Shown here piece after piece: positions 26,041 to 56,734 of a stretch of DNA of 64,000 bases. The position numbers and the translations under genes are program-made. The notes beneath the pieces are model-generated. The model saw nothing but the letters and a program-made list of their open reading frames with translations. It was not told the origin of the DNA and searched no databases. Numbering within the stretch: position 1 is the first letter of the stretch; every line of letters starts with the position of its first letter. This DNA is from a virus. The stretch spans positions 32,001 to 96,000 of IMG/VR virus record IMGVR_UViG_3300036715_003254. One strand, 5' to 3'.

Positions 26041-29000
26041 TTATCCTTTTATGAAAAATTGTGTCAATAATCCCATTCTGTCAGCTTCAAAATCGTGAAG
26101 ACTTATATTGGTAGTTGTTACCTTTGATAGATCTTTGCTTGCTGGATTAGTCATAGCAAGATTACTTTGTTGTTGCGCTTCTTGATTTGGTTTATTTATT
26201 GCCATTTTTCCGGCTTCTCCAATTTTATTAACAGCGCTGCTAGTTGAACCTACAGGAGTAACTGTTGCTGGTGTCGCAGGAGCTTTAGGTGTGCTTGGAG
26301 AACTAGATGAAGGAGTCACCGAAGCACTTTTCTTAGCGCCTTCTGACGGATTTTTAACATTTGGTCTGTTTACACTTTCAACTTGTCTAGGATTTGGATC
26401 AGAAGAACTTCCTCCGCCACTGCTTACTTTAATTGGTGGTACAGGTTTCAAAGGAGGAGCAGCTTTAGCATTAACTCCCGCAGGTTGAATGTGCCACGCT
26501 TCAGGTAATCTAGGACTGTGAAGTAATGGTCTATCTATTCCCCATTTAGCTAGAAGACCGAGCCTATCAGCTTCATTAGCATCATTGGAGTTTATGTCCA
26601 TAGCAAGACCCTTTTCGTGAGCGGATCTTCCTGGAGGCGCCACTTTACCATTACCTTTCGGCGGATACTGTTTAACATTCTCGGCGTATAATTGTGCTTG
26701 TTTTACTGAATCCCTATATCCAGAGTTTACTTGAATATCTCTTCCTGTTGCTTTTTTAAAATCAGCTGCCATTCCTTGAAAGTTTTTAAAGAAAGCTGGA
26801 TTTACATTATCCAAATCTACGCCAGATTGTTTTTTGAAACCTAAACCACTTTTTATTTTGTCGATTGCTCCACTAATACCTGAGCCAATTGAACTAGCAA
26901 CAGAAGATACTGTATTTCCTACTTTGCTTGCGGCAGAAGAAACAAAATTTCCTACTTTGCCTGCTGTAGAAGAAATGAAGTTTCCTGCGGCACTTGCTGT
27001 AGAAGAAACAAAGTTTCCTACTTTACTTGCTGTGTTTGATACAACATTTGCTCCAGAAGAAAATAACTCGCCAACAGTATTAGAATTTGTTAATTTTGAA
27101 ACCCATCCTGGAAGAGGGATAGAAGTTATAGAATCAAATAATTTTCCTGGAAGTGAAGTGACAAAGTCTGCAACTGTCTTAATAAATTTTCCTGGAGCTT
27201 CTAAAAGAAGTTTTGTTAAACTTTGTATAGTAGTGCCAACAGTTTTAATAAAGTTCCAAACTTTTTTAATACCTGCGCCTATCGCAGATATACCTTTTTG
27301 AATCCAAGTAAATGGTGATGTTATTACATCTATTAATACTTTTGGAACTTCTTGCACTTTGTTCCAAATCCAAACAAAGGCATCGCCTATCGCAGTAAAA
27401 GTTTTCGTAAGCGTTGAATTTGGGTCAGACATCTTGTCTGAAAGCCAATCTCCAACACTATCACCTAGTTTTTTACCTAGATAACCTCCAACCATTGTTC
27501 CTATCGGACCAAAAAGAGAACCTAAAGCCGCGCCACCAGCTGCTCCAATAGCGGAAGCTCCTATTTTAGCTGTTTTTTGTCCTCTATTAAGATTCTTATC
27601 ATCTTTTACTTCTAAAAATCTGTCGATACCGCCCATAATACCAGCTAATGGACCTGCAACTTTCGGAGAACCTAGCTTTTTAATAAATTTCCAAGTTGAA
27701 GAAAGACCGGCCTTACCTTTATCTGCGATATTTTTTACTAGTGAACCAGTTTTATTAGCTACTTTTGAAAGACCTGCTTTTCCTTTTGAAACAGCATTTT
27801 TTGCGAATGAGCCGATTTTCTTAGCTACTTTAGTAAGTCCTCTTCTTGCAGCAGATAAAGATTTTCTTAAGAATGAACCGAATTTCTTGACTACTTTGAA
27901 AAGACCCTTAGCCATCCAGAGAAGACCTTTTAAAAGACCTTTAAGAAGTCCTAGAATACCTTTTTTCCATTTATCCATTCCGTGAGTTTTAAAGTTTTTA
28001 CTCTTATCTGTTTCAGCCTTAAATAAATTTGAAAATAGACCGCCTTTGGGTTTTGGAGCTTCTTTTACTGATTTTTTAGGAACTTTCTTATTAAATAAAC
28101 CACCAAATAAACCTTTTTTCTCTTTTTTATCCTCTTTTTGACCTTCTTTTTCGTCTTCTTTTCCGCCACGTCTTTTAGAACCGAAAAGACCTCCAACTGC
28201 GCCAATTAAACCTCCAACTGCACCCAATATTCCTTTAGAATAACCTGCTACTTCGTGAGTTTTAAAATTACCAGATTTATCTACCTCAGCCTTTGAACCA
28301 GACATAAAGGTCGGCTGTGTTGGCTGTGTTGATTTTTCTGATTCGACTTTAGGATTTGAATTTTGTCCTTTAGATTCAGAATCAGTGTTTTGTGTTTTTT
28401 CGCCTTTTTTTGGTTTGAAAAAACCTCTAACTGCATTAACTATTCCAGTAGAATGGCCAGCAACTTTATGAACTTTGGTGTTGTTCGATTTATCTACTTC
28501 AGCCCTTGGCAAAGTCATAAAATGTTGTGTTGGTCTAGCTACTTCGAAAGACTGTTTGGTTATTTCAGCCATTGATTTAGTTATTTCAACAGCCGGTTTA
28601 GTAATAAAATGTTGTACTGGTAAAACAGTAGAAGACTGTACTGGTCTAACAGTAGAAGACTGTACTGGTAAAACAGTAGAAGATGGTCTAATAGTAGAAG
28701 ACTGTACTGGTAAAACAGTAGAAGACGGTCTAGCCATAGAAGACTGTACTGGTAAAACAGTAGAAGACTGTACTGGTCTAACAGTAGAAGACGGTCTAGC
28801 CATAGAAGACTGTACTGGTAAAACAGTTTCAGTTGTCGGTCTAGTAGTAGAAGACTGTACTGGTCTAACAGTAGAAGACTGTACTGGTAAAACAGTTTCA
28901 GTTGTCGGTCTAGTAGTAGAAGACTGTACTGGTCTAACAGTAGAAGACGGTCTAGCCATAGAAGACTGTACTGGTCTAACAGTAGAAGACTGTACTGGTA

Positions 29001-30957
29001 AAACAGTAGAAGACTGTACTGGTCTAGCTATAGAAGACTGTACTGGTAAAACAGTAGAAGACTGTACTGGTCTAGCTATAGAAGACTGTACTGGTAAAAC
29101 AGTAGAAGATGGTCTAACAGTAGAAGACTGTACTGGTAAAACAGTAGAAGACTGTACTGGTAAAACAGTTTCAGTTGACGGCCTGTTTGTTTCTACTATT
29201 GACCTAGTAATAAAAGATGGTGTTGGTCTAACTATTCCAGATCTTATTCTAACTATTTCAGCTCTAACACTTTGTCTGTTTTCTCTAGCTCTTTGTCTAC
29301 TTTCTCTAGCTCTTTGTCTATTAGTTTCTGTTCTTTGTCTACGTGTTCTAGTTCTAGGTCTGCTTGTTTCAGTTTCTGGTCTGTCTGTTTCTGGACTATT
29401 AGTTTCCGTTCTTTGTCTACGTGTTCTAGTTCTAGGTCTGCTTGTTTCAGTTTCTGGTCTGTCTGTTTCAACTCTTGGTCTAGCTGTAGAAGATGTTGTT
29501 GACCTGCCTATTTCAGTATTAGAATTTGAAGCTTGTTCTCTAGACTCTGAAGTATTATTTAATGTATTTTCTACTCTTTGCGATCTGAAAAAACCACCAA
29601 GAAGACCTATCACTCCGGCTGAAGTGGCTTCAACTATTCCACGAACTCCTCTTGGACTATTTTCATTGTTGTTATTTTTTATTCCCGTCATAAAAGACGG
29701 TAGTTTCATTTCTTTTTTCGCTAAATCTTTTTCGTTTCCTTCTTTCTTCGTTTCTAGCTCACGAAGCTTTTCTTCTAACTTAGCAAGTTCTTTTTCGGCT
29801 TTTTTCTTTTCTTCTTCTCTTTTTTCTCTTTCGGCAGCCGCAGCTTCAGCGTCTCCTGAAATTTCATTTAGTCTATCTACTACTGTATCTCTACTTTCTT
29901 CAATTTCTTTAAGAACAGGATCTTTTCTTTTTTCTACAATTTGTTTTTTTATAGAATCGATTTCTTCATCTAGTTTAACTTGATCTTCAATCTTATTTCT
30001 AAGCCTTTCTTCATCTTCTCTATTCATAGAGAGTTTTCTGAAGAGACTGTAGTTAGCTTTTTCCTTGCTAACGAGAGCTTCTACAAGATTTTCTTTATAT
30101 TGGTTTTGAAAAACCTCTTGTTCTTTTAGTATTTGAGCTTTCTGTTCTTCAAGTTCCCTTTTTTCTTCTTCTGAAGCGCCTGCAAGTAGAATATCGATTC
30201 TCGCAAGTTGTTGATCTAATGATTTTTGATATTCGTCTTTTTGTGTTTTAAGGTCTTTTCTTAAGCCTTCTATATCAACCTGTTGTTTCTTTCCGAAGAT
30301 TTCATAATTTTTCTTCATCTCATAGGCAACACCAAGAATGCCTTTACTTTGAAAATCTGAGAATGAAGTTTTTACTATATTTCCAAAGGTTTTTCTATTT
30401 TGTTGAAGTTTTATTGAAAAGTCTGACTTTAAGTCAACAATTTCTGAAGCGAATTTTTTATATTGGTTACTAAAGCCTGATTCTTGTATTTGTTGAAGAG
30501 CAATTCTTTCTTTTCTAGCAATCATTTGCTCTTCACTCACCATAGTAATGATTTTGGCAAATTGACCGTTAGAATTTTTAGATAATTTTGAAAGTTTATC
30601 GGCTAGGCTTGTTCTGAAAGCTTGGGAAAGAGAAACACGACTTTTTTCAACAGCTTTGTTTAAGGCACTCAAACCCGATTCCATATTATCGAGTTTAGCG
30701 CCTAGAAAATCTAATTTCTTTTTTAAGCCTTTTACTTCTTTGATAGCTTTAAGAACTTCTTCTACATTATTCGGATCAAATAATCCATTCTTTACTTTTG
30801 AACTTATCTCATCAACTGATTTTCTAATAACATCGACTGCATTCCTAGTTTTGTCATCAAATGAATTATCTTTTACCTCATCAATTGATTCTGAAATGCC
30901 TTCTAGTTCTTTTTTTAACCTTTCTAGTTCTTTATTAAAATCAGTTGTTTCAGCCAT
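26041..30957 (-). CDS. Tape measure-like protein with a C-terminal M15-family peptidase domain
   Basis: Coiled-coil N-terminus, Gly/Ala-rich hydrophobic segment, periodic aromatic repeats; VNSGYR...QAQLY...APPGRSAHEKGLAMDI...EAWHIQ (SxH...D...ExWH zinc motif). Confidence 0.8.
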   Translation of the reverse strand: MAETTDFNKELERLKKELEGISESIDEVKDNSFDDKTRNAVDVIRKSVDEISSKVKNGLFDPNNVEEVLKAIKEVKGLKKKLDFLGAKLDNMESGLSALNKAVEKSRVSLSQAFRTSLADKLSKLSKNSNGQFAKIITMVSEEQMIARKERIALQQIQESGFSNQYKKFASEIVDLKSDFSIKLQQNRKTFGNIVKTSFSDFQSKGILGVAYEMKKNYEIFGKKQQVDIEGLRKDLKTQKDEYQKSLDQQLARIDILLAGASEEEKRELEEQKAQILKEQEVFQNQYKENLVEALVSKEKANYSLFRKLSMNREDEERLRNKIEDQVKLDEEIDSIKKQIVEKRKDPVLKEIEESRDTVVDRLNEISGDAEAAAAEREKREEEKKKAEKELAKLEEKLRELETKKEGNEKDLAKKEMKLPSFMTGIKNNNNENSPRGVRGIVEATSAGVIGLLGGFFRSQRVENTLNNTSESREQASNSNTEIGRSTTSSTARPRVETDRPETETSRPRTRTRRQRTETNSPETDRPETETSRPRTRTRRQRTETNRQRARESRQRARENRQSVRAEIVRIRSGIVRPTPSFITRSIVETNRPSTETVLPVQSSTVLPVQSSTVRPSSTVLPVQSSIARPVQSSTVLPVQSSIARPVQSSTVLPVQSSTVRPVQSSMARPSSTVRPVQSSTTRPTTETVLPVQSSTVRPVQSSTTRPTTETVLPVQSSMARPSSTVRPVQSSTVLPVQSSMARPSSTVLPVQSSTIRPSSTVLPVQSSTVRPVQSSTVLPVQHFITKPAVEITKSMAEITKQSFEVARPTQHFMTLPRAEVDKSNNTKVHKVAGHSTGIVNAVRGFFKPKKGEKTQNTDSESKGQNSNPKVESEKSTQPTQPTFMSGSKAEVDKSGNFKTHEVAGYSKGILGAVGGLIGAVGGLFGSKRRGGKEDEKEGQKEDKKEKKGLFGGLFNKKVPKKSVKEAPKPKGGLFSNLFKAETDKSKNFKTHGMDKWKKGILGLLKGLLKGLLWMAKGLFKVVKKFGSFLRKSLSAARRGLTKVAKKIGSFAKNAVSKGKAGLSKVANKTGSLVKNIADKGKAGLSSTWKFIKKLGSPKVAGPLAGIMGGIDRFLEVKDDKNLNRGQKTAKIGASAIGAAGGAALGSLFGPIGTMVGGYLGKKLGDSVGDWLSDKMSDPNSTLTKTFTAIGDAFVWIWNKVQEVPKVLIDVITSPFTWIQKGISAIGAGIKKVWNFIKTVGTTIQSLTKLLLEAPGKFIKTVADFVTSLPGKLFDSITSIPLPGWVSKLTNSNTVGELFSSGANVVSNTASKVGNFVSSTASAAGNFISSTAGKVGNFVSSAASKVGNTVSSVASSIGSGISGAIDKIKSGLGFKKQSGVDLDNVNPAFFKNFQGMAADFKKATGRDIQVNSGYRDSVKQAQLYAENVKQYPPKGNGKVAPPGRSAHEKGLAMDINSNDANEADRLGLLAKWGIDRPLLHSPRLPEAWHIQPAGVNAKAAPPLKPVPPIKVSSGGGSSSDPNPRQVESVNRPNVKNPSEGAKKSASVTPSSSSPSTPKAPATPATVTPVGSTSSAVNKIGEAGKMAINKPNQEAQQQSNLAMTNPASKDLSKVTTTNISLHDFEADRMGLLTQFFIKG
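28610..29180 (-). repeat. Coding minisatellite (~24-bp units, PVQSSTV[LR])
   Basis: About 20 copies of the AGAAGACTGTACTGG core with variant units. Confidence 0.9.
29322..29470 (-). repeat. 75-bp direct repeat (ETDRPETETSRPRTRTRRQRTETN, two copies)
   Basis: Visible in both DNA and protein. Confidence 0.85.
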
Positions 30958-30965
30958 TTTAAACC

Positions 30966-31151
30966 TTACAATGATTCATCAAAAATCATTGATTCTCTTA
31001 ATTTTTTTATTTCCTCGGAAACTAAATTTCCATAGACCTCTCTCTCAAAAGGATACATATTGTCAATTTCTTCCACAGAAAATTTTCCGTGTATTTTCAT
31101 TGAAGTAACAAATTTGTAGTAGTCCTCTAAAGTGAGGTCTATTGCTACCAC
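30966..31151 (-). CDS. Small baseplate-hub/chaperone ORF, probably the -1 frame extension of the upstream gene
   Basis: EEIDNMYPFEREVY motif typical of the small T4-like hub assembly ORF; overlaps the upstream stop in the -1 frame. Confidence 0.7.
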   Translation of the reverse strand: MVAIDLTLEDYYKFVTSMKIHGKFSVEEIDNMYPFEREVYGNLVSEEIKKLRESMIFDESL

Positions 31152-31867
31152 GGCAAAAAATCTGGTGAATCTCCTAGAGAGATTTCAGTCTCTTCTTTAC
31201 AGTATTTACATTTCACTTTAACAGTATTAGTTGTAGTTGAAGCCTTCATTTCTTTATATTGAGAAATGAGATCGTCAAAATCTGAAACAGGAAGACTTTC
31301 AATGAATTCATTTACTTCTTCTATTCCGAATGCTTCGAAAACTTCATCGCCTATTCTTACTTTTTTAATAGCTAGAGCAAATTCTTTAATGACTTTTTCT
31401 ACGATATTTTCTTCTTCTCTTACTATTTTTCTTGCTTCAGGATTATTGTTGTCAAAAAATTCTATTTCAACTTCTTCACCCTCAATAACTTTTTTTATTG
31501 TTCCAAAACTCGAAGGTTTAAATGTTATAACTTTTGAAATTGAAAGTTCTTGGCTATTTCTTTTATTACAATGAGGACAAACATATTTCACATTAAATTT
31601 GTCACCTATTGAAGCTTTTCTTAGTTGTACAAGAATATATTCCTTTTCTGCGTCAGAAAGCTTTTCCACTTCTTCAGGAGTTTCACAGTTAGAATAGATA
31701 AGACTTTCATATAAAGCTTCCATATATTCTGATTCTTTAGCACCTTCTTGTATCTGCATTTTCGCAAGAAGGTAGTTCTTTTCATTTTTAGTTGTCCACC
31801 TTTTAAAGAAGAAAGCTCTATTGCCTATTTCTATCGGGAAAAACGATTCAGAATTTTTTAGTTTCAT
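31145..31867 (-). CDS. gp26: Baseplate hub assembly / tail chaperone (gp26-like)
   Basis: WTTKNEK..L...EYILVQLRKASIGD, two CxxC motifs, upstream of the tape measure gene. Confidence 0.8.
   Translation of the reverse strand: MKLKNSESFFPIEIGNRAFFFKRWTTKNEKNYLLAKMQIQEGAKESEYMEALYESLIYSNCETPEEVEKLSDAEKEYILVQLRKASIGDKFNVKYVCPHCNKRNSQELSISKVITFKPSSFGTIKKVIEGEEVEIEFFDNNNPEARKIVREEENIVEKVIKEFALAIKKVRIGDEVFEAFGIEEVNEFIESLPVSDFDDLISQYKEMKASTTTNTVKVKCKYCKEETEISLGDSPDFLPW
31154..31160 (-). other. Putative -1 ribosomal frameshift site T-TTT-TTG
   Basis: GAT TTT TTG CCG TGG TAG; a -1 shift reads TTT TTT GCC GTG GTA GCA into ORF 30966-31151; AGGAG lies 10 nt upstream. Confidence 0.65.
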
Positions 31868-31894
31868 ATTTGTCCTTTAAGTTAAGTTTCAAGA

Positions 31895-32425
31895 TTATTT
31901 ATTTGTCCTATTGATAGTAATACATTTAGGGTCAGTAACAAACTGTACAGTAACAGTTTGGACATCGTTTGAAGATGCTTCAAAGGTCAAAGTAGAAACA
32001 TTCGTCAACCAACAGTAGCTTAAATCATAAATCACTTCTACATCGTCTCTATCGCCCCAATCGGCATACTTATAAACTTTTATCTGGAAAAAAGAATCGT
32101 CTGGATAAGAGTCATATAAACATTTAAGAATTGAAGCGAACATTGTATGATAGGTATTTCCTTCCATTTCATAAAGTTCGAAAGAAAGCTGTACTTCTTT
32201 TTGGCTAACATAACAAAAGTTAAAAAATCCAGATTGATATTCAGTCGCTAATGATGCAGTTATAGCGTCCAAATTGAAAGTTTTTACGCCTGGTATAGTT
32301 ATTTTACTTCCAGGAGTTAAACCTACAGATTTTAATTTTTTCTCTCTAGGTAGAATTATATCGATCGAAAAATTATTTTTGAAAGAAAATCTATATAAAA
32401 AACTATCGAGTGGATTTTTAGCCAT
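31895..32425 (-). CDS. Tail tube-like protein (gp54/gp19 family)
   Basis: Tube-fold pattern (LSFELYE...YDLSYCWLTNVSTLTFE....VQTVTVQF). Confidence 0.6.
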   Translation of the reverse strand: MAKNPLDSFLYRFSFKNNFSIDIILPREKKLKSVGLTPGSKITIPGVKTFNLDAITASLATEYQSGFFNFCYVSQKEVQLSFELYEMEGNTYHTMFASILKCLYDSYPDDSFFQIKVYKYADWGDRDDVEVIYDLSYCWLTNVSTLTFEASSNDVQTVTVQFVTDPKCITINRTNK

Positions 32426-32477
32426 TTTTACCTCAAATAAATATTGTGAACCGAAATTATTTATTTGGAGATAAAAA

Positions 32478-32984
32478 ATGGCTTATGATATAGAAAATCT
32501 AAAGACCACACTTGGTATAGGTGCAAAGAAGTATAGATTTAAATTAATACTTCCTCTTGAAGGTGCTGACAAAGCAGACTTGCTCGTTAAGACTGCGAAA
32601 CTTCCTAATATAGAAATTGCTGAAACAGAAGTATTTTCAAAAGGAAGAAAACTAAAAATCAGAGGACACAGAAAATTCGATGGCGAATTAACTTGTACAT
32701 TCCTTTCTGATGATGCTCATACATTAAGAAAAGCGTTTGAAACGATTATAGAAAAAACTGACTCATATACCACTAACATAGCCACAAATAGCCACGCAGA
32801 TTATATGATTACAGGTATGACTCTTGTTCAGCTTGCAGGTGATGACACTGAAAAAGCAAAATGGGAATTTAAAAATGTTTGGGTAAAAACTGTTGGTGAA
32901 ATTGAATTCACTTCAGAAGAAGGTGAAGAAATTATTGAGCTTCAGGTAACTTTCTGCTACTCAGACTACGTAAGAACGCTTTAA
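32478..32984 (+). CDS. gp19: Tail tube protein gp19
   Basis: LVKTAKLP...KGRKLKIRGHRKF...LRKAFE...VQL...FKNVW...GEIEF...VTFCYSDY. Confidence 0.88.
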   Translation: MAYDIENLKTTLGIGAKKYRFKLILPLEGADKADLLVKTAKLPNIEIAETEVFSKGRKLKIRGHRKFDGELTCTFLSDDAHTLRKAFETIIEKTDSYTTNIATNSHADYMITGMTLVQLAGDDTEKAKWEFKNVWVKTVGEIEFTSEEGEEIIELQVTFCYSDYVRTL

Positions 32985-32987
32985 TAA

Positions 32988-33022
32988 AAATGAGGAGAAT
33001 TATCTCTCCTCATTTCTTTTTT
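32988..33022 (+). terminator. Intrinsic terminator after gp19
   Basis: AAATGAGGAGA/TCTCCTCATTT stem followed by CTTTTTT. Confidence 0.75.
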
Positions 33023-33048
33023 AGAAAATCTCTTATAAAGGAGTTTAT

Positions 33049-33246
33049 ACGAACAAATTTTTTAAAAAAATCAAATCTCAGAAAGGAATTAGTGATGTTG
33101 TAGTAGCACTTCTACTTGTATTAGTAGGTGTTGTTGCTGTAGCAGGTATTCAAGTATTCTTAAAAACACAATCTGCTACTGTTCAAACAGAAACAGCTTC
33201 TCATCTAAATAAAGTAGTATCAGAAAGCAACTCGACACAACAATAA
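33049..33246 (+). CDS. Pilin-like 65-aa protein with class III signal peptide; ACG start (or start-mutated pseudogene)
   Basis: RBS AAGGAG (33038-33043), 5-nt spacer, then ACG. Translation: (M)NKFFKKIKSQKG|ISDVVVALLLVLVGVVAVAGIQVFLKTQSATVQTETASHLNKVVSESNSTQQ*. Confidence 0.7.
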   Translation, partial: TNKFFKKIKSQKGISDVVVALLLVLVGVVAVAGIQVFLKTQSATVQTETASHLNKVVSESNSTQQ

Positions 33247-33264
33247 AGGGAATATTTCTTCCTT

Positions 33265-33432
33265 TTATTTTTCTTTTGTTATTTCTTCAGTTTCTTCTTC
33301 AATTTCTTTGTCTTTGTTTCTTTTAAACAATTTTGGTTTTTTCTTTTGGTCTTTCTTAGATGGATCTCCTGGATTAACTACATCACCAGAAACAGTTTCT
33401 TCTTGAAGTAATAAAAATTCAGACACTTTCAT
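33265..33432 (-). CDS. Small charged protein (55 aa), possible internal head protein
   Basis: MKVSEFLLLQEETVSGDVVNPGDPSKKDQKKKPKLF...; the ATG abuts the gp13 stop codon. Confidence 0.55.
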   Translation of the reverse strand: MKVSEFLLLQEETVSGDVVNPGDPSKKDQKKKPKLFKRNKDKEIEEETEEITKEK

Positions 33433-34182
33433 TTATACCACCGTTATACCTGTTGGACAGCCGTAAAGTTTAGTTAGATCTTCATCAAGCTTACTTAGCG
33501 CTTCTTTAGCATCAGATATCATTCTATTGTATTCTATTTTAGAGCCGGAAACCAAACTTGCATCGTATTTACCTAGATTTGTTCCTTGTTGTAATAGAGC
33601 AAGATTATGTGCATAATTTTTTACCCAAGTATGATTATAAATGTCGTCTATATCTCCAGGAGTATACTGTAAAGCTAGATGTAAAAGTATATTTGGATAA
33701 CCTTGACTATAAACATCTTCTAGGAAATTTATTTCTTTATTAAAGGAATTCCAAGAATAGTTTGGACATCTTCTGAAAAATCTCATAATATGTTCATATT
33801 GAGCCATCATAGAGTAGACTTGAGTAATATCTATTTGGTACGATTGTCCCTGAGGATTGAAACCGAACATTTGAAACACAAAATCTGATTGAATAACAGT
33901 TCTATCTGGCATAGTGAACATAGAAGCGTTACCGACATAGATATTAAGCAAGGCTAGTGTTTTGTCAGGAAGTTTATACTTTCTAACTCCTTGTTGAACA
34001 GGAAGGAGATACACATCTTCTGTGTATCCCTCATAAGCAAAAGTGGTGAATTTGTTTATAGCTTCATTAATACAATCGGAAAGTTGAGATTCAGTTAACT
34101 CAACAGATATTATACCATCACCAAGTTTTCTTTTGATATATTTTTTAAGATCTACTTCCGATTGTATTTTTGAAAATGCCAT
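33433..34182 (-). CDS. gp13: Neck protein gp13-like
   Basis: LKKYIKRKLG..IISVELTESQL.DCI.EA; YNHTWVKNYA.......G.NLGKY...L..G. Confidence 0.9.
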   Translation of the reverse strand: MAFSKIQSEVDLKKYIKRKLGDGIISVELTESQLSDCINEAINKFTTFAYEGYTEDVYLLPVQQGVRKYKLPDKTLALLNIYVGNASMFTMPDRTVIQSDFVFQMFGFNPQGQSYQIDITQVYSMMAQYEHIMRFFRRCPNYSWNSFNKEINFLEDVYSQGYPNILLHLALQYTPGDIDDIYNHTWVKNYAHNLALLQQGTNLGKYDASLVSGSKIEYNRMISDAKEALSKLDEDLTKLYGCPTGITVV

Positions 34183-34481
34183 TATTTTCTACCTTTTCTA
34201 CCTTTTGTTTCTTCGACAGCTTCTTCAGTAACAGTAATATCAGAAGATTCGTCTTTAAGAATTTCTTCGTCATTTTCTACAAATTTTTCAGTAACGGTTT
34301 CTTTTATTTCTTTAACAGCTTCTTCTACTTTTGTTTCAGCCGTTTCAACAAAACCTTCTACTTTCTCGAAAAAACTTGAAAAAACCTCTGTAAATGGAGA
34401 CTTAACATAAAGTTCTCCAGCTTTTATTTCTTGTGAAATGTGACCAATCGAAATGACTCTATCTACTAGCGCCTTATACAT
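34182..34481 (-). CDS. Hypothetical acidic protein
   Basis: 99-aa ORF with RBS GAGGAG. Confidence 0.6.
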   Translation of the reverse strand: MYKALVDRVISIGHISQEIKAGELYVKSPFTEVFSSFFEKVEGFVETAETKVEEAVKEIKETVTEKFVENDEEILKDESSDITVTEEAVEETKGRKGRK

Positions 34482-34591
34482 TTTTCTCCTCTTTAAACCC
34501 CTCTAAACATAGAGGACATTTTGTATTAATTTCGTTGTTAGTTGGTTTTCCGAAAGCTTCCTCAATAGTAACACTTTCGCTCATATCGTAC

Positions 34592-34996
34592 TCAATTACC
34601 TTTTTTGATTTTTGAGTTTCCTGATTGTTTTTGTTCTCCAATTTCACTCCTTTCGTCGTTATTATTTATTTCATTAATTACGACTTCTGGTTCTGAAATT
34701 ATAGTTTCTGGTTTAGAAACAACTTCTTGTTCAGAAGTAGCAGTTTCTGGTTCTGAAATTATAGTTTCTGGTTTAGAAACAACTTCTTGTTCAGAAGTAG
34801 CAACTTCTGTTTCAGAAATTATAACCTTTGGTTCAGAAAAAGGAGCTTGAATATAAATTTTCTCGCCAACACAAAAGAAATTGTCTTTATAGATTCTAGT
34901 AATAACAGATTCTTCGACTAGAGAATCTTTTTTAAAGTCATATCTTCTTCCTTCGTGAACGATTATTTTGTTTTTCAATACTTTGAAAAGTTTCAT
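34592..34996 (-). CDS. Hypothetical protein with a 60-bp tandem repeat
   Basis: ATSEQEVVSKPETIISEPE occurs twice (~34685-34802). Confidence 0.6.
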   Translation of the reverse strand: MKLFKVLKNKIIVHEGRRYDFKKDSLVEESVITRIYKDNFFCVGEKIYIQAPFSEPKVIISETEVATSEQEVVSKPETIISEPETATSEQEVVSKPETIISEPEVVINEINNNDERSEIGEQKQSGNSKIKKGN

Positions 34997-35011
34997 TAAA
35001 AATCCTTTAAT

Positions 35012-35039: not shown

Positions 35040-38000
35040 TTAGTAATCACCACCGAATACTGTAACAGCTATCGGAGAATTTGGACCATATGATGTAGCA
35101 GTACCAAGAGTAGCATAAACTCTCATACCACTATCAAGAGAAAGATTTGGATAATAGAAGAACTCACTTTGAGCGCCTGTCTCTGTAGTTGATATAGAAG
35201 GAACAGAGATTTCCGCTATCATTGAGTTGTTTTCTTTTATCTTGACATCTCCACCATTATTCAAGAAGAACCTTACTACTGTTGAACCTGTAGTAGATGT
35301 AGGTCTGACTTTGAATGTATCTAGTCTAGAACCATAAGGACCAGCAGCATAAACAAGTTTCATAGTATCATCAGAGTAACCTGCTATACCGAAATTGCTA
35401 CCAGCTAGAGTAGAAACTTTTCCTGTTGTCAAATCGATTTTTCTTACTTTATGATATTGTGAATCAAGAATAAAGAGTGCGTTTCTTGAAGCGCTATATT
35501 TAATATCAGCAATAGAACCGAATAGAGCAGCAGAAAGACCACCACTACCATCAACAAAACCAGATTGACCAAAAGGATTTCCTGCAAAGTAAGCAGATAT
35601 TCCTGTAGCATCATCGACAGTTTTAATTTTTGTTACATCTGAGACATACCAAGTTGAACCGACTTTTGTCATACCTATTGGTGTAGACTGATAAGTCGCT
35701 TTTTTACCCATACAATTTCCAGGATAAGAACCGACACCAAGTTCCATTGTGAGAGTTTTACTAGAAATATCTACTTTTGAAACATAAGCTGAGTTTCCTA
35801 TTAGGAATTGAGTTGGACTAATCCAAGTAATTTGACTATGAATTGTCAAATTCAATGGAACTTGAGCAATATTACCTATACCGTAACTGTTTGACTTACC
35901 ACTAGTATTTACTAGTGTAGAAACAAGACCGCTTTGAATATCCATAACTCTTATTTTTGAATATCCAACATCAACTATATAAAGGTTTTCTTTAGACGCA
36001 TCAAGAGAAAGTTTAGCTGGATTATAGAAACTTGCTGAAGTTCCATTTCCATCTAAGAACCCTTGTCCGCTACCTGCTATAGTTGTAGTATAACCATTAT
36101 ATGGATTTACTTTTCTTATTCTGTAACCTGAATAATCAGCTACATACAAGAAGTTACCATCGAAAGCTATACCTGCAGGATAGTTGAATTTCGATTTTGG
36201 ACCATCAGAAGCAATACCCCAACCAGTACCATCACTAGAAGATCCAGATGTATCACCAGCAATAGTAGTTAAGAAACCTGTTGAAAGTTTCATTTTTCTA
36301 ATAACATTGTTACCGCTATCAGCTATAAACATATTTCCGTTGCCATCAAGAACAAATTGTCTTGGATTATTCATTCTTGCTATAAGGTTTACACCATCAG
36401 CATAACCAGAGTTACCTGTACCTGCCCAAGTTTGAACCATAACATTAAGTTGAGGATATACTCTTCTTATTTTATAGTTAGATTGGTCAGCAACATATAG
36501 ACTAGTTCCGTCAGCAGTACAAACAATACCTCTCGGATAGTTGAATTTAGTTGAAGTATTATAACCGTCAACGTTACCTGGATATGTTGTATCAGAAGTT
36601 GAGTTATTAGGTGGAGTACCAGCAATAAGAAGTACTGTACAAGTATCTATGTCAATTCTTCTAATAACGTGGTTACTGTATTCTGCAACATAAAGCTCTC
36701 TGTTATTTGATACACAAATGCCCCAAGGATTGTTAAATCTAGTATTGGCTTGACCAGTACCATCTATATAACCTTTTGTACCGTCACCAGCAAATACAGA
36801 AACTCTCTTATCAGACAAGCCGTATTTTCTAATTCTATGACCGCTGTATTCTGTAACATAAAGGTTACCTTCAAATTCTACCATATGCATTGGACCATTA
36901 ATAGCTGCAGAGTCACCGATACCGTCAACAGTAGAAGCTGAACCGTTTCCGAAAAGTGTACCGACTTTACCAGTGGCTTTGTCGATATATCTTACCCTAT
37001 TGTTATTAGTATCAGCTACATAAATTGTAGATTTATCGCTTGACCAAGCTAGACCATTAGGATTGTTAAACATAGCTTCACTAGGTTTACCATCAGCAAA
37101 ACCAGCAACACCTTTACCAGCAAATGTTGTTATTTGTCCGTTAGATATTTTTCTAATTCTGTTATTTGAACTATCAGCAACATAAATATCGCCATTTGTG
37201 TCGACTACTATACCCATTGGATAGTTAAACATACCGACTGCGGCCTTTCCTTCAGTATAACCAGAATAACCTGAACCTGCAACAACAGAAGTCAGTTTTG
37301 TGGTTTCGTCATATACTCTTACTTTATAGTTTGCATAATCAGCAAAATAAACTTTTCCAGATTTATAGAAAGGAGTTAGAACGCCGTTTCCTACTCTTGT
37401 AAAGTTTCCGTAAGTGTCATTTGAACCAGAAGTACCATCACCCAGAACAGTATCAACTAGATTAGTTGAAATGTCGAGTCTTCTCATTCTAGCGTCGCCT
37501 GAGTTCCAGTTACCTATATAAAGTTTTGAACCATCTTCGCTTAGAGATAGGTATGAAGGATATGTAATCAATGGTCTTAGTCTTACGCCGTCGTTAGATG
37601 CTCCAGAACCAGAGTATTTTGTACCACCAGCATAAGTCTCAACATAATAAGAGTTAACATCAAAAGATCTAACAGTTGTAACTGCTGTAGAGATGTTTGA
37701 GTTTGTAAAGTAAATCAACTTATCATTTGAGTCATAAATTGCTCCAGGAATATGTGCGATTGTAAACGATCCGTATTGTCCGTCAGTTGAACCATAAGAG
37801 TTAGAAGAGTTAATTGTTTGACAATCGTCAGTAGCGAAGCTTATTCTTCTAACATAAGGTTGTCCGAAGAACCACACTGTGTTCGCATCTTCCCATACAA
37901 TATTAGAAATACTATCATTGTATGTACCTGTTTCAGAGAATGTAGTTTTATAAGCTGGACAGTTAGAAGCTGAACCAGAAGCTCCGTGTGTTCCAAGGAA

Positions 38001-41000
38001 TTGACTAAATTCACCTGTTGTAGTATCGTATTTTGTGATAGTATAATTTGCTCTATTATAAGCGTAGATATTGCCATCAAGACCAACAGAGAAATAACCA
38101 GAAGAAAGACCGAATGAACCTAAAGCTGTTTTAGAGCTTGTCATTTTTGCTGGTGATGTAGAATACGAATCAGCAAATGATGAGATAATTGTTGAAACAA
38201 AGTTTTTACTAATATCGTATTTCACAAGTCCAAGGCTTGAAGCAGTAATAGCTAGGAATTTATCTTTGTCAATACTGCAAAGTTTACCTATACCTGTAGC
38301 AGTAACATAATCTACGTGACCTGTTTGAGAAGAAACTCCTGAACCTGTATAAGAGAATACTTGTGGATATGGAAGGAAGCCAAGATCAATTACTCTTACT
38401 ACATTGTTTCCTGTATCAGAAACATAAACTTTTTTGTTTTTAGAGTCAACAATGATACCGTTCATAGTTGATGAGAATCTAGAAGAAAGTAGATTTCCAT
38501 TTATTACAGAACCGTTACCACTACCAGCAATTGTAATTACTTGTTGAGTAGCTTCATTGTATTTTCTAACAGCAGCATTACTATCGCCTGAAGAATAAGC
38601 TGTAAACCAAAGATCTTGATTTGTAGCATCATAAGCCATAGCCATAACAGTACCAACAGAAGCGTTTATACCTTCACCTGTACCCATTGAAGTTTGACCA
38701 TTACCACAAGCTATTGAAACAATTCCTGTAGCTAGATCTATTCTTCTGATTACATTGTTTCCAGCATCAGCAACATATAGACAGTTAGCTCCGGAAGAGT
38801 AAACTATGTCATTAAGTGTAGTACTGAATGTAGCATTTGCTCCAGTGCCGTTTTCAAAACCAGTCATTACTGAACCGGCTATTGTGGTAACAATACCGTT
38901 TTGAGTGATTTTTCTTACAGTAGAAGAGTCACAAACATAGAAATTTGTGCCATCAGTTGTAATTCCAGTAATAGATGTGAATGTAGGCGGAATAGACAAA
39001 TAACCAACTTCAGATGTTGCTGTATATGATGATGTAGATGAACCCATTCCTAGTAGAATAACTCTATTATCTGAAGAAGAAAGAAGTATTAAGCTATCTA
39101 CTATACCTGCTGTATCAAGATTATTTCCTTGAATATAACTTACAGTATTGTTAGAAATAATAGCAAAGAAAACTAAAGCCGATGCTTTACCATTTCCTGT
39201 TTGTCCACCAACAAGAACTACATAACCGTTAGAAAGAACTAAAGATTTATGATAAGCCATAGTGTACGGAAGGTTTGTTACTGATGTCCAGTTAATAGTA
39301 TCACTTCCTAAAACACCTATATAAGCTTCACTTTGGCAGTTACCAGAGTACATACCGCCTGTAACAAAAATTCTACCGTCAGGAAGAGTAATAGCAGATT
39401 TACCTGTGACGCCTCCGCCAGAGTTAGGAAGAGCGCTAAACAATGATCCCCAAGAAACATCACTACCAGTATATTTACCTATAACAGAGCTTTTGCTTGA
39501 CAAGTAAACAACATTTGAACCTGATACAACAAGAAGACCGTCAGCTGTACCATTAGGACAAGCTGAAATAGATGTCCAAGTAATTTTATTATCGCTAGAA
39601 ACAGTACCTATATAAGAACCGCAAGCAGTTTTATTACTTGAATCAGTATAACCGCCTAGTACTATAATTTTTCCATCAGGAAGAGTAGCTACACTGTGTT
39701 CAATTACACCAGCTTCAGGGAAGTCAGTTGAAGCAACCCAAGTAGTACTATTACCAGAAACAGTTCCTATTTTAACAGTTTTTATACCGTTAGTACCGTC
39801 AGTTGAACCGCCTATTGAAACAATTCTGCCATCAGGAAGTTTAGTTGTTTTCGCTGGATAATTTGAGAATGTGTCATAATTATCAGTAGGAGTTACTAGA
39901 TTGATTTGAGCACCATCTTGTAGACCGCTTAGAGCACTACCAGCAAGAATACTAATATCACCTGTTGCTTGATTCCAAAGTTTTACAGATCTAACATCAG
40001 CTATAGCAGTCACATTTTTAGAAATGAAAGATAATCCTCTTAAAGCTGATTGGAAAGTAGGAATACTTGCTGTAGGACTATAGTATCCGTAGCAGTCATT
40101 TTGTGTATTATTGTATGATAGTTGAACAGCTGAACCAGTAGAAGTATCAACAACTCTGAATGTATCGTGAGTTTGTACATATATCTTACCGGCTGAATAA
40201 ACCATTGAGTTCTTAGTACCAGCAGTGTAGTAATTATTTGAACTTGCTGTTGAGCTACAAGTATTTGTAGTTTGTGTACTAGTATTATAAGAACCAGAAA
40301 GTGTAGATTCTGTTGTCCAACCTGTACCAGAGTATTTCAAAATACAGTTAGCAGAAAGAGTGAAAACATTTGTTCCGTCTGTACAAACTGAGAACATAGG
40401 TTTTGTAGAAATAGTTGATACAGTACCATCAGAAGCTATTCTTCTTAGACCGTTTTTATTATCAGCTACAAATACATCTCCGCCTATTTTACAAATATTG
40501 TTACCGTTTAGAGGAAGTTGTCCTGTAGCATTATAACTACTGAATACTGCTTGTTGACCATACTTACCATCTAGACTTCCAGGTTGAGCAAAAATACTAC
40601 CTGTTACGTGTGATACAAAGCCTGTAGAAGGATTTATTTTTCTAACTCTGTGGTTATAAGCATCACCAACATAAACTGTACCATCAGAAGCACAAGCAAC
40701 ACCTATAGGACTGTTAAACGCTGCAAGTTTTCTTATACCATCAGCAGAACCATAAGTACCATTTATACCTGCGTATGTTTCGACGTCGCCAGAAGTCAAA
40801 TCCATTCTTCTAATTACGTGGTTTGTAGTATCAGCCATAAACAAGTATTGACCTGTAGAATCAACAAATAGAGAATAAACTGAACCTATAAGAGCGTTAT
40901 AAGAACCACCTCCTGGACCTTGACCATCTTGGTTACCAGCAGAAGATTGTGAGCTAGTATTACCAGCTATTGTCACAACATTTCCAGCATTTCCGGAAGC

Positions 41001-44000
41001 ATCCAAAGGAATTCTTCTTATCAAATAGTTACCACCGTCAGCAACATATAAGTTTGCTTCATTTGCGTCAACAGCAATGTCATAAACAGCTTTAAATCTA
41101 GCAGTAGCTGTAGGAGCTCCATCTGCATAACCAGAAGAGTTATATGAACCAGCTATTGTAGTAACATTTGGATTATTTGGAAGACCTGTTATTTTTCTTA
41201 CTGTATAACCACCGCTATCAACAAAGTAGAATACACCAGAAGCACCAAGACAACCACCTGAAGGGTTATTACAAGTAGCGTTAGATCCTGCTCCGTCTGC
41301 ACCACCAGCTGTACCAACATTCGCTCCAGAAGCACCAGCAATTGTTGAAGTTGAATAAGAGTTATTTATAGCCGCAGATCTAATTCTGTTACCAGCAGCT
41401 TCACAAATATACATAGTCGAATTGTCTGGAGTAAGAATAACATCAGTCGGACCATTCAATCTTGAAGAACCTTGACTACCATCAGCATAACCAGCTGTAG
41501 CGTTTGGAGCAGCAGCACCAACAACAGTAGTAGTAGCACCAGTAGCTATAGTTACCTTTCTAATTGCGTGGTTACCTGTATCAGCAACATATAGATAATT
41601 TCCGTCGTTTGTTACTGCTACACCTTGAGGACCATTAAATGCTGAACCAGCACCGTTAGTACCATCAGTAAAACCAGAAGTACCAGTACCAGAAATAGTA
41701 GAAACAGCGCCTGTACTCATATCAATTTTTCTAATTTTGTGGTTACTAGAGTCGGCTACATAAAGTATACTACCGTATTGAGCAATACCTTTATGGCTGT
41801 TAAATGACGCCGGAGTACCAGATGAATATCCTTGGAAGTTTCCTGAAGATCCAGAAGTAAGACCAGAATATGTAGAAACTTGACCTGTAGCAATTACAAT
41901 TCTTCTGATTGCGTTATTTCCTGTATCAGCAACTAGTAGAGAATCTGAAAGTGGACCTTGACCTAGACAAATTTGTTTAGGTGAATTAAATTTTGCTGAA
42001 GTAGAGTTACCATCAACAAAACCACTAGCTCCACCAGCAAGAGTTTCAACCCTAGCAGTAGCAACATCTATTTTTCTAATCGCATTGTTTCCGCTATCAG
42101 TAACATAAAGAGTATTAAAGTCTTTTGAGAAACATAGAGCAACAGGAGTATTAAATGAAGCGTTTAGACCTTCACCATTAACAAAACCGCTAGAACCTGT
42201 ACCAGCAAAAGTTATAGTATTACCTGTAGCTAATTCTACTCTTCTTATTTTGTTATTGGCAGTATCAGCAACATACATATATTTAGAAGCTGAATCAACA
42301 ACAACATTATATGGAGAGTTAAATGACGCTTGAATTCCAACAGCAGGACCATCAGCAAAACCAGAAGCACCTGAACCAGCAACAGAAGTTATAATACCAG
42401 TTTTATTATCTAGTTTTCTTACTTTATTTCCATCTGTAAAATAAACTGCATTATTTGCTTCGTCTAGATAACAGAAATTTGGAGAAGCAAGAATAGCTTG
42501 AGAATATTGACCAACACCATCCATAGAACCAGTGTTACCGGTTCCAACAATAGTTGAAAGAGCGTAACCTGAAGTTGAAACTCTTCTGATTTTATTTGAT
42601 TTTGTATCAGCAACATAGATATAATCAGCAGTTGGAGATACACAAAGACCTAGAGGACCATTAAGAGTACCATTAGTACCTGTACTGTTATCAGTAGAAC
42701 CAGCAGAACCAGAACCAGCAATTGTATAAACAGCACCAGTTTGAGTCATAATTTTTCTGATTTTATTATTACCTGTATCAGTAACATATAGTATATTACC
42801 AGATTTATCACAAGTAATATCTGTAGGTGAATAGAAGCTAGCATTTAGACCTGTACCGTCAGTACCACCTATTGCACCAGAAGGAGAACCAGCAAGAGTT
42901 GTAGTAGCACCATTTAGTGGATTTACTTTTCTAATTCTTTGGTTACCTGTATCAGCAACATATAGATATTGGTCGTCACAAGTAATGCCTGTTGGTTGGA
43001 AGAATGAAACAGCGCTTCCAGTGTTACCATCAACATTATATTGAGGTCTGTTTATACCTGCATTATCTTGATTTAATTGAGAAACAGCATTTAGACCAGT
43101 ACCAGCTACAGTAGCAACCACCCATTGTGAAAGAGTAGAGTTATAAGTTAGACTTCTAATTTTGTTTGAGTTAGTATCTGCAACATATAGAACGCCGTTT
43201 AGTTGAGTAATACCTTGAGGATAGTTAAATGTAGCAGAAAGACCATTTCCATCAAGAGAAGAATTATCTCCAGAACCAGCGATTGTAGTAACAGTATTAT
43301 TACTCAAATCTATTTGTCTAATCATATTATTACCAGTATCAGCAACAAATAGTTTTGTATTAGTTTGGTCTAGACAAATACCTTTAGGAAGGTTAAATGT
43401 TGCGCTTGTACCAGCTCCGTTTAGAGAACCGAATTGTCCTGTACCAGCAATAGTAGAAACCACACCAGTAGCAATATCGTATTTTCTTATTTTGTTGTTT
43501 TTAGTATCAGTAAAGTATACTGTAGTACCATCAGAACATACGCCTCTAGGTTCATTAACTTCTGAAGCCATAAAGTAACCAGCACCATCAGAGTAAGAAG
43601 CATTTCCATCTCCAGCCATAGTAGAAATGAAGAAGTTATTATTTAGCTCAAGTCTTCTTATTGCGTGGTTTGTTGTATCTGAGAAATATAGACAGTTTGA
43701 AGTTGCATCATATTCCATATGTGAAATGACACCAAAACTTGCTGCCATACCAAAGCCGTCAGTAAGATTTGAGTTTCCGTTTCCGGCTATCAACATAATA
43801 GTATTTGTTATTGGGTCATATCTTTTGATTTTATATGTGTTAGCATCAGCTATATAGTAATATCTACCATCATAAGCCGTAGCAGATACTAGACCAAAAG
43901 AAGCAGAATAAGGAATAGAAATACCATCTCCATAAGAAACTATACCAGCACCAGCAAGAAGATTTACTTCTTTTGTTAGAGTATTAATAGCTCTTATTTT

Positions 44001-55645: not shown

Positions 55646-56734
55646 TTAAGACTTATAGCTTTTTCTTCCTTTTACCCAACCTTTAGTTACTTCTTCTGGT
55701 AATAATGTTTTACATATTTTAAGCTTATCATTATGATACCAACTTTTTCCTAGATTGGTTTTCATTTTTTCGGGATCCATATTCACAATCCTGCCTCTTC
55801 TAAACCCTTTATTCAAAAATTCTTCTATTCTGTCTTTCTCTACCTGAAAACTATCTACACCATTTGTCATCCAAACAGTACCTAAATTATTTTGTGTCTT
55901 CCCTTTAACCCAGCCATCATTTAAATACTCTTCTAACTCTTCTTGCTTAATGGATATACTTTCTCTACCCTTCTTTATCCAAATACGCCCAAAAGCACCA
56001 CTATTTTCTCCTCTTCTTTTCTCAGCATATTTTTCTCTTTCTTCAGGAGTTAAACTTTGATAATATTTCTTTACTGCAGCTGCTCTCTTTTCTATGGTTT
56101 CTTTAGAAGGTTTATAACCTTTCAAACTTTCTGAAGTTTTTCTACCTTTTCTCTGATAACCAGTTAAACCGTCTTCGCCTACTTCAGACAGCTTTTCTTT
56201 TGTTTTTTGGATTATGAGTTCTTGAACAGACATTCCATTTTCTAAAATAGTTTCCTTCCTAGTTTTATAACCACGTCTACCACTATCCTGAGCATTAGTC
56301 AATCCATTCTCTAGAACTGTTTCCTTTCTAGTTTTCGCCGCCTTTAAAGCCGCCTTTTTATATTCACTCAAACCATTTTCATCAACAGTTTTAAATTTTT
56401 CGAAAATCTCTCTGTTAACTTTCTCAAAAAGTCTCGAATTAGTAATCTCTCCCCATCCTCTTTTTTCTGATGTGTGTTTTAGCTGCCAAAGAGCATAAAC
56501 CATTTTTCCACCAAAAATTCTAGCTAGCATTATATGAGCTATAAAATGAGCTCTGTAAGATAGATTAACACCATTCCAAGGATATAAATTAAGATTTTCA
56601 TATTCAGGAAATAACGCTCTTAGTAGTATATGATGTTTATGAGTATGAGTTTTACTTAATGTATTAAACTTCTTACAAAAGTTTATATACCTTTTCGAAA
56701 GGTTAGTGTTTGGTAGGAAGCTTTCTATGTTCAT
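55646..56734 (-). CDS. Free-standing HNH homing endonuclease (Mob-like) with C-terminal DNA-binding repeats
   Basis: N-terminal HKHHILLR...NGVNLSYRAHFIAHIMLARI; ENGL repeats; NUMOD-like (PSKETIEK) and W..NG...GW.KGR repeats. Confidence 0.85.
   Translation of the reverse strand: MNIESFLPNTNLSKRYINFCKKFNTLSKTHTHKHHILLRALFPEYENLNLYPWNGVNLSYRAHFIAHIMLARIFGGKMVYALWQLKHTSEKRGWGEITNSRLFEKVNREIFEKFKTVDENGLSEYKKAALKAAKTRKETVLENGLTNAQDSGRRGYKTRKETILENGMSVQELIIQKTKEKLSEVGEDGLTGYQRKGRKTSESLKGYKPSKETIEKRAAAVKKYYQSLTPEEREKYAEKRRGENSGAFGRIWIKKGRESISIKQEELEEYLNDGWVKGKTQNNLGTVWMTNGVDSFQVEKDRIEEFLNKGFRRGRIVNMDPEKMKTNLGKSWYHNDKLKICKTLLPEEVTKGWVKGRKSYKS

Follow-up and report, generated by a model that had tools for sequence, protein, structure and literature searches.

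Why should a T4-like phage carry a gene that resembles a host pilin gene, and why should that gene begin with ACG? The question is raised by a short reading frame at 33049-33246 (+) in a 64,000-nucleotide stretch of DNA, here called the window, that comprises bases 32001-96000 of the 138,481-base IMG/VR record IMGVR_UViG_3300036715_003254, a phage record judged to be 94% complete. An earlier annotation, made by a model from the letters of the window and a list of its open reading frames (ORFs) and referred to below as the sequence-only reading, had proposed that a pilin-like gene lies hidden at this site. The best explanation overall, to which a probability of about 0.6 is assigned, is that the frame is a phage copy of a host Tad-type major pilin gene whose product would act on host pili, present here as a strongly attenuated, probably near-null allele.

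The pilin gene and its product

The frame runs for 65 sense codons from ACG (33049-33051, +) to TAA (33244-33246), with a Shine-Dalgarno sequence, AAGGAG at 33038-33043 (+), located 5 bases 5' of the ACG. It is open from a TAG at 33022-33024 and has no in-frame ATG, GTG or TTG, which is why it is missing from the ORF list. The first 13 residues (T1-G13; 33049-33087, +) form a leader that contains five lysines and ends S-Q-K-G, where Gly13 would be position -1 of a predicted prepilin peptidase site. There follows the hydrophobic N-terminal helix of the predicted mature pilin (I14-I34, 21 residues; 33088-33150, +), which includes an Asp codon at mature position +3 (codon 16; 33094-33096, +), and then a polar, Ser/Thr/Gln-rich tail (Q35-Q65 and the stop codon; 33151-33246, +). 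The predicted mature protein has 52 residues, and its helix is strongly hydrophobic, with a mean Kyte-Doolittle value of 2.93 over mature residues 4-23 (family median 2.54). The features named by the sequence-only reading are confirmed: a gene overlooked by the ORF list, with its ribosome site, ACG and 65 codons, its SQKG leader, hydrophobic helix and polar tail. The two hairpins between which it had placed the gene, that of the gp19-like tail tube gene and a second one beyond the stop codon, were both found by fold analysis.

Frames of this size are not rare by chance in DNA of 33% GC, as simple arithmetic shows. By sequence comparison the frame is a real gene because homologs were found, and not because of its length. 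The earlier reading had listed a lack of homologs among the outcomes that would refute it. A word-indexed search of 5.8 billion proteins gave nine candidates and returned six metagenomic proteins of 62-82 residues, 56-84% identical to the window protein, at E values of 2e-22 to 5e-13. Opposite the threonine encoded by ACG in the window, all six have Met, which in one of them (P0004) is internal and follows a 17-residue extension. Two chromosomal homologs (L002 and L003, described below) likewise start with Met at the ACG position, so that ATG is aligned with the ACG in eight of eight homologs; the earlier reading had proposed a search for just such ATG-bearing orthologs. A profile search of 1.84 billion representative proteins recovered 50 at E<=1e-3 and 10 at E<=1e-10, most of them about 60 residues long.

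The signals around the homologous genes are conserved as well. In the host homologs AAGGAG or AGGAGG precedes the ATG by 5-7 bases, and these genes too finish with a hairpin and a T-run. Between the window gene and the two chromosomal homologs, nonsynonymous divergence (dN) is 0.24-0.35 and synonymous divergence (dS) is saturated. Identity to the pilins of chromosomal Tad clusters is 48-57% over the full alignment and 49-65% over the best tblastn segment.

Among viruses the family was not recovered by the searches made. Pilin scans of IMG/VR found no relatives, and a scan of IMG/VR with the tail tube protein found none either. There was no tblastn match of the metagenomic homolog P0002 to 50,697 GenBank phage records, and a blastn comparison of positions 31000-35000 with phages gave one 54-base match, in the capsid gene of a Fusobacterium phage, that was judged irrelevant. 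The single locus from a scan of metagenome contigs (L017) was dropped, its match being an unrelated membrane protein encoded at the terminus of a phage-like contig; that contig looks GC-rich, judged by eye from its ORF translations. An Atlas look-up returned Campylobacterota clusters (0.95), together with low-scoring leads to PF04021 and PF16982.

An archaeal-like family of Tad-type pilins

The family alignment holds 40 sequences: the window protein, five of the six first matches, 28 of 49 further representatives and six translations from host loci. P0004 was kept out for its N-terminal extension, and 21 representatives were left aside as longer or fused, N-terminally extended or truncated, or distant archaeal or Flp1-like proteins. 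Gly at -1 (Gly13 of the window protein) is invariant in all 40, and Lys or Arg precedes it at -2 in 33. Leaders range from 10 to 22 residues (median 14) and contain a median of 4.5 Lys plus Arg, and the predicted mature proteins have 43-61 residues (median 50). No member has Pro within the first 30 mature residues, and none has an acidic residue at +5, the position at which Glu is a criterion of the type IV pilin superfamily. Tad pilins, as described in the accessible part of a published account (PMC10710030), have 40-60 residues, no globular domain, no Pro22 and an archaeal-like packing; in its Gly at -1, its leader, its mature size and its lack of Pro, the family fits that description. The window product is very probably a Tad-type prepilin with a class III signal, predicted to be cleaved after Gly13.

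Two types of mature N-terminus are seen in the alignment, x-S-G in 23 rows and an A-M-D-like type in 17. At +3 the window protein alone among the x-S-G rows has Asp, the other 22 of 22 having Gly; Asp or Glu occupies this position in all 17 rows of the A-M-D-like subfamily. The Asp of the window could be damage, or a shift toward the type of the sister subfamily.

Classification by existing models gives sub-threshold results. No Pfam or NCBIfam model reaches its cut-off for the family, and NCBIfam returned only sub-threshold pilin, pseudopilin and other membrane-protein matches. The Flp pilin family for which the sequence-only reading had proposed a hidden Markov model search, PF04964 (Flp_Fap, with the G/xxxxEY motif), was absent from the matches at E<=1 for seven of seven members. 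Profile comparison with the PDB ranked archaeal filaments and a short pilin of Geobacter highest, at E 0.017-0.09 and mixed with chance matches. The distant tail of the profile search contains PF07790 (archaeal pilin N-terminus) proteins, one of them above the cut-off, and sub-threshold PF16982 (Flp1_like) proteins. The earlier remark that a missing +5 Glu makes the protein more like archaeal pilins holds up, with 0 of 40 members acidic at +5 and archaeal pilins as the only weak Pfam and PDB similarities. To call the family more archaeal-like than bacterial appears a fair description of its sequences, which fall outside both PF07790 and PF04964 by the models' own cut-offs. An archaeal host, which the similarity to PF07790 and archaellins might suggest, was considered and rejected: the chromosomal homologs are Campylobacterota genes that lie beside an outer-membrane secretin gene.

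Tad-type clusters in Campylobacterota genomes

A scan for chromosomal homologs, with one genome per species, led to two metagenome-assembled genomes (MAGs), one of a member of the Campylobacterales (locus L002) and one of an uncultured Helicobacter sp. (locus L003); a Sulfurimonas sp. MAG is the annotated source of a further family member. At both loci the pilin gene stands tail-to-tail with genes for a secretin (PF00263, E ~5e-37), a membrane protein of 132-133 residues and a SAF/ChapFlgA-domain protein. At another contig end of the same two MAGs (G001 and G002) are found a short Peptidase_A24, a ParA-like ATPase, a T2SSE ATPase and two T2SSF proteins. In both MAGs the cluster thus breaks after the second T2SSF gene and before the SAF/CpaB-like gene, and each piece is contig-terminal (in G001 at the end of contig C22 and at L002; in G002 at the start of C5 and, with L003, at the start of C7). 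The shared split point may be a repeat or a strain-variable stretch.

Pilin matches at E<=1e-3 were found in 11 of 301 Campylobacterota genomes, and in some of these the cluster is continuous. In genome G179 two family members lie directly upstream of a Peptidase_A24 gene (143 aa), which is followed by genes for a 354-residue protein, ParA-like, T2SSE, T2SSF, T2SSF and SAF-like proteins, a 142-residue protein and a Secretin that carries the pilus N-terminal domain T2SS-T3SS_pil_N. The order in G171 is a short A24 frame, two unknowns, ParA-like, T2SSE, T2SSF, T2SSF, SAF, a 140-residue protein, Secretin and the pilin. G189 has ORF sizes in the same order as G171, with a short A24 frame in the same place; the Pfam scan covered this short frame. 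We take the layout to be tadV-tadZ-tadA-tadB-tadC-cpaB-cpaC. Relative to G171 and G189, the pilin gene of the L002 and L003 MAGs is inverted.

Canonical Flp (PF04964) was found in none of the five such host genomes, with a Caulobacter control positive, and for this reason the small pilin family is the only pilin candidate of these clusters. The members from six host loci (L030, L031, L032, L015, L003 and L002), of about 60 residues, are named "hypothetical" or "PilV" by their sources. Linkage to a tad/cpa cluster holds for the chromosomal homologs (G179, G171, G002 and G001), while the phage copy stands alone. The earlier suggestion of a pilin-like product of Flp/Tad size with a class III signal is in this way upheld, both by the invariant Gly13 and by host homologs that lie in Tad-type clusters with an A24 peptidase.

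Host and origin of the phage gene

In a phylogenetic tree of the family the window protein pairs with P0002 (99/62), within a clade of 13 rows (97/93*) to which both chromosomal genes belong; the tree was built from 66 columns, many of its forks are unresolved, and its root is arbitrary. Since the window gene is nested in a clade with chromosomal genes, it appears to be host-derived, from the Campylobacterales. The best guess is that the host is a member of the Campylobacterales, probably Sulfurimonas-like. The named homologs are all from Campylobacterota, the loci of G171, G179 and G189, at 30-35% GC, are similar to the AT-rich phage, and the habitat, sulfidic sediments and mats, points the same way. 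In composition the pilin gene matches the phage, with 32.3% GC and 12% GC at third codon positions (GC3) against 32.7% for the phage and a GC3 of 16-23% in five phage genes. The locus of L003, the most identical named chromosomal homolog, is unlike the window gene at 48.5% GC. For the major head protein, Campylobacter phages were the top-ranked cultured relatives among 1406 T4-like records, at ~25% identity.

The ACG allele and its relatives in metagenomes

The earlier reading had advised that the base at 33050 be checked. Four sequencing runs of sediment and microbial-mat metagenomes, from four studies that all date from 2020, were compared with the window; one of them, X1, is possibly the source sample. 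Contigs with zero differences from the window carry C at 33050 in all four runs (X1 record 1, X2 record 8, X3 record 18 and X4 record 26), at depths of 18.2, 39.1, 24.8 and 7.5, respectively. ACG is the dominant allele in these runs and not an assembly error.

The same runs contain rarer relatives, in contig pieces that are short and were placed at 88% likeness, so that they serve as hints only. One X1 contig (record 3, depth 4) fits from 33051 on, and the letters that precede this point carry the same ribosome site and an ATG. In an X2 contig (record 10), which has a depth of 4.9 and 23 differences, the body of the pilin gene adjoins the end of the tail tube gene. In two X3 contigs (at depths of 4.84 and 2.6) position 32990 or 32994 is connected with 33304 or 33291, so that the pilin cassette is missing; one of the two has 36 other letters between, again hairpin-forming. 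Between 32990 and 33304, the low-depth relatives in X2 and X3 thus swap the leader region or skip the entire cassette, and the site between two terminators appears to be a hot spot for insertion and deletion. The earlier view of the gene as a moron-like accessory cassette is supported.

A relative with a similar arrangement is indicated by P0004. Its extension opens with four residues encoded from an ATG inside what in the window is the terminator stem, and it would seem that the gene caller stretched P0004 to that ATG, which is in frame with the pilin in the relative. P0004 and P0059, a 90% identical homolog of the tail tube protein, are each the single protein of a 1113-base JGI contig. We infer that a related phage probably carries the tail tube gene, a terminator and an ATG-started pilin gene in the same order. 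Homologs of the tail tube protein at E<=1e-10 number only two.

What would the ACG allele produce? In E. coli, according to the accessible part of a preprint (bioRxiv 10.1101/063800), ACG belongs to the group of codons that initiate at 0.1-1% of the level of AUG, and the space behind the terminator leaves no room for an obvious promoter of the gene's own; the output of the ACG allele should be about 1/100 of that of the ATG allele or less. A genome-wide scan for a ribosome site with a near-cognate start, at least 55 codons and no canonical start gave three candidates, of which the two others look non-coding. No tRNA genes were found in the window or in the whole record, and hence there is no phage initiator tRNA. 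Because of the start change, the change at +3 that is unique in its subfamily and the relatives without the cassette, the window allele is best viewed as a strongly attenuated copy of a dispensable accessory gene, with near-null function somewhat favoured over the other possibilities. The sequence-only reading had offered two explanations for the ACG, a throttle on a toxic product or recent inactivation. With ATG in the homologs and in the X1 relative, the unique Asp at +3 and the cassette-less relatives, the analysis leans to inactivation or near-silencing.

Proposed role and alternative explanations

The A24 peptidase (PF01478), T2SSF (PF00482) and integrase (PF00589) families have no match in the phage record, and since peptidase and assembly genes are lacking, the product would have to rely on the peptidase and Tad machine of the host. 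It would be inserted in the inner membrane, where the short A24 (TadV-type) peptidase of the host would cut after Gly13; the cut product would then compete with, or join, the host pilin at the Tad platform. An intact gene, as in the relatives with ATG, would by these steps change the pilus, while infection lasts, in its role as a receptor for phages or as an adhesin. The proposal draws on an analogy with phage copies of FimU and PilA. In the accessible part of a recent study (PMC12952977), phage FimU copies are described as entering the pilus and blocking adsorption of tip-binding phages, and PilA-like genes, including a 60-residue form that consists only of the N-terminal helix, are reported from virulent phages. 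A decoy or interference function for the intact gene is put forward tentatively, the odds being somewhat against it. A stronger version, in which ACG and the Gly-to-Asp change at +3 are jointly adaptive and a trace of charged-tip poison pilin stalls or caps the Tad filament and removes phage receptors, appears improbable; if true, it would be the first non-AUG start that doses a dominant-negative pilus subunit, and the first functional handle on the unannotated, archaeal-like Tad pilin family of Campylobacterota.

Several observations weigh against the explanation preferred here, or against parts of it. The match to PF07790 is to 15.6 bits against a cut-off of 25.2 (E 0.03) and occurs in two of seven members, and the PDB similarities, at E 0.017-0.09, are marginal. 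The host assignment, itself a best guess, draws on the pilin gene, on composition and on a capsid protein weakly similar to that of Campylobacter phages (~25% identity), and carriage at the same site in relatives is deduced from the equal-sized contigs of P0004 and P0059 and from short pieces. With the gene placed behind that for the tail tube, its transcription would seem to be late and by read-through, a poor fit to early superinfection exclusion. As to near-silencing, all 17 members of the sister subfamily carry an acidic residue (Asp or Glu) at +3, so that the Asp of the window protein is no clear defect; and a working low-dose allele, although it is given clearly the smaller share of belief, has in its favor an intact frame, ribosome site and terminator and an allele that dominates in four runs.

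The low-dose possibility can be framed as a working throttle, in which the ACG is used and trace pilin poisons or caps the host Tad pilus at sub-stoichiometric amounts, with Asp at +3 changing the packing. The intact signals, the dominance of the ACG allele in four of four runs and the acidic +3 residue throughout the sister subfamily are all as it would have them, and in E. coli translation does begin at ACG, for the most part with Met, as stated in the accessible part of the preprint cited above (bioRxiv 10.1101/063800). It is nonetheless rather unlikely, since the eight other homologs all start with ATG, a second credible gene with a ribosome site and a near-cognate start did not emerge from the 138-kb genome, the phage has no tRNA, and the sequence is near-identical in four runs, so that the intact frame may reflect only a recent change. 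The gene might instead be a pilus-building gift to the host, a pilin assembled by the host into functional pili that raise adhesion or biofilm formation or that serve as a receptor. Virus-encoded pilins that hijack host secretion and form dominant surface filaments (PMC12426801), and Flp pilin genes of Vibrio harveyi prophages reported as adhesion factors (PMC12482185), are precedents for this in the accessible parts of both sources. A phage with T4-like virulent architecture and no integrase found has little time to profit from host fitness, and an ACG start argues against high output; the gift is improbable.

Two further explanations would take the pilin away altogether. A holin, antiholin or spanin-like lysis peptide, pilin-like only as a single transmembrane helix, would also be small with one hydrophobic helix, and the holin family PF07332 does appear at E>=0.013 in two of seven members. 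Yet the homologs are chromosomal genes of Tad clusters, beside prepilin peptidase or secretin, the Gly at -1 is invariant, and the neighbors encode tail tube and head-tail adaptor proteins with no endolysin among them. The sequence-only reading had named identification as a holin or spanin as the outcome that would tell against it, and PHROGs gave no holin or spanin match, only phrog_37624 (unknown function, E 0.019); a lysis peptide is very improbable. A chance open frame between two terminators is the least credible explanation of all. The lack of a canonical start, and the ease with which such frames occur by chance in AT-rich DNA, speak for it, and it is countered by homologs at E 2e-22, by a dN of 0.24-0.35 with saturated dS against the host genes, and by a ribosome site and terminator that are conserved in the homologs.

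Transcription signals and genomic context

Upstream of the pilin gene, the terminator hairpin of the tail tube gene (32988-33025, +) consists of a stem-loop at 32988-33015 and a T-run; it is the single terminator-like site in 32300-33700, and the region folds at -17.8 kcal/mol (z -2.9). The downstream hairpin (33242-33269, with a U-rich run to 33278; -9.4 kcal/mol, z -3.3) overlaps the pilin stop codon and lies where the pilin gene (+) and a convergent 55-aa ORF (33265-33432, -) have their 3' ends. Rfam has nothing near its gathering score here, the sole matches being at E 0.6-1 on the terminator hairpin. No sigma-70-like site was found 5' of the pilin gene, there is no promoter-like site in the 33 bases from the T-run to the ribosome site, and matches to the T4 late-promoter motif (10) do not exceed the number expected (11.3). 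Transcription of the pilin gene probably depends on read-through from the tail tube gene. A listed 37-aa ORF at 32990-33103 (+), whose ATG at 32990 lies in the left arm of the terminator stem, is most likely spurious.

From its gene content, the phage appears to be large, virulent-looking and T4-like. The gp19-like tail tube gene that precedes the pilin gene (32478-32984, +; phrog_45 E 5.6e-32, weak PF06841) has a gp19-like paralog (31895-32425, -), and the two diverge from a 52-base spacer. A T4-type baseplate hub gene (31145-31867, -) and a head-tail adaptor gene (33433-34182, -) lie on either side, and tail sheath, gp23-like major head and baseplate wedge genes are found farther off in the window. 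Just downstream of the adaptor block is a gene (35040-45677, -) for a 3545-residue protein with NHL/teneurin-NHL beta-propeller repeats (PF01436 E 1.8e-96), possibly a giant fibre or a protein that binds the host. The gene in the tape-measure position (26041-30957, -) encodes a protein of 1638 residues with long tandem repeats rich in Ser, Thr, Pro and Val and, around residues 1385-1462, a VanY D-Ala-D-Ala carboxypeptidase domain. A homing/HNH endonuclease gene (55646-56734, -; phrog_655 E 2.6e-21) is located in the structural region near the major head gene.

Comparison with known systems

Tad/Flp pilins such as Caulobacter PilA are the closest in kind. As they are presented in the accessible part of PMC10710030, they share with the window family the Gly at -1 and a short mature form, of ~50 residues, made up solely of the alpha-1 helix and free of Pro22, and the host homolog genes are linked to tadV, tadZ, tadA, tadB/C, cpaB and cpaC-type genes. 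The window family differs in that it has no PF04964 match and lacks Glu at +5 and Tyr at +6, in that about half of its members have Asp or Glu at +3, and in that the phage copy is an orphan without tad genes. The archaeal type IV pilins (PF07790; Ignicoccus Iho670, PDB 3j1r/5kyh) resemble it in the K/R-G and x-S-x motifs and in a Val/Leu/Ile-rich helix without Glu5, and they provide its best, though weak, Pfam and PDB similarities; in contrast to them, the window family is bacterial, stays below the cut-off, lacks a C-terminal domain and is encoded in clusters that include an outer-membrane secretin.

Among viral precedents, the FimU and PilA copies of Pseudomonas and Xylella phages (Sztanko et al., Cell Rep 2026, PMC12952977) are likewise phage homologs of a host pilus subunit, and for the 60-residue helix-only group of virulent phages the authors, in the accessible part of the article, propose pilus entry or block. 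Those copies are of type IVa and from Pseudomonadota, whereas the window gene belongs to a T4-like phage, probably of Campylobacterota, has a non-canonical start and encodes what appears, from sequence alone, to be a major pilin of the Tad type. The SNJ2 provirus of Natrinema encodes PilA1/2, which, as far as the accessible part of the article goes (Xiang et al., Cell Rep 2025, PMC12426801), also have class III signals and need the peptidase and assembly system of the host; SNJ2 is a temperate archaeal virus with highly expressed pilins that have globular domains, in contrast to a window phage with no integrase found and a crippled start. Flp genes of Vibrio harveyi prophages, too, are Tad-type pilin genes in tailed (pro)phages, but in the accessible part of their description (PMC12482185) they are canonical Flp genes of temperate phages, annotated via a virulence-factor database. 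A Tad cluster has been noted in a Sulfurospirillum epibiont, in the accessible part of PMC10470745. In the literature on phage pilins and on Tad/Flp systems, within the accessible parts of the sources and supplementary tables aside, neither the window pilin family nor a Tad-type pilin in a T4-like phage was found.

Phage copies of pilus subunits have only lately been shown to act as a receptor-level defense against other phages. The present case extends the idea in three ways: to a Tad-type pilin, to a large, virulent-looking T4-like phage, and to environmental, sulfur-cycling Campylobacterales as the probable hosts. It is also a reminder that gene callers based on start codons miss such genes. 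The use by Campylobacterota Tad clusters of an archaeal-like pilin family of ~60 residues without the Flp motif bears on the proposed archaeal origin of Tad pili, and the ATG, ACG and cassette-less forms in the same samples constitute a natural series on the retention and loss of accessory genes.

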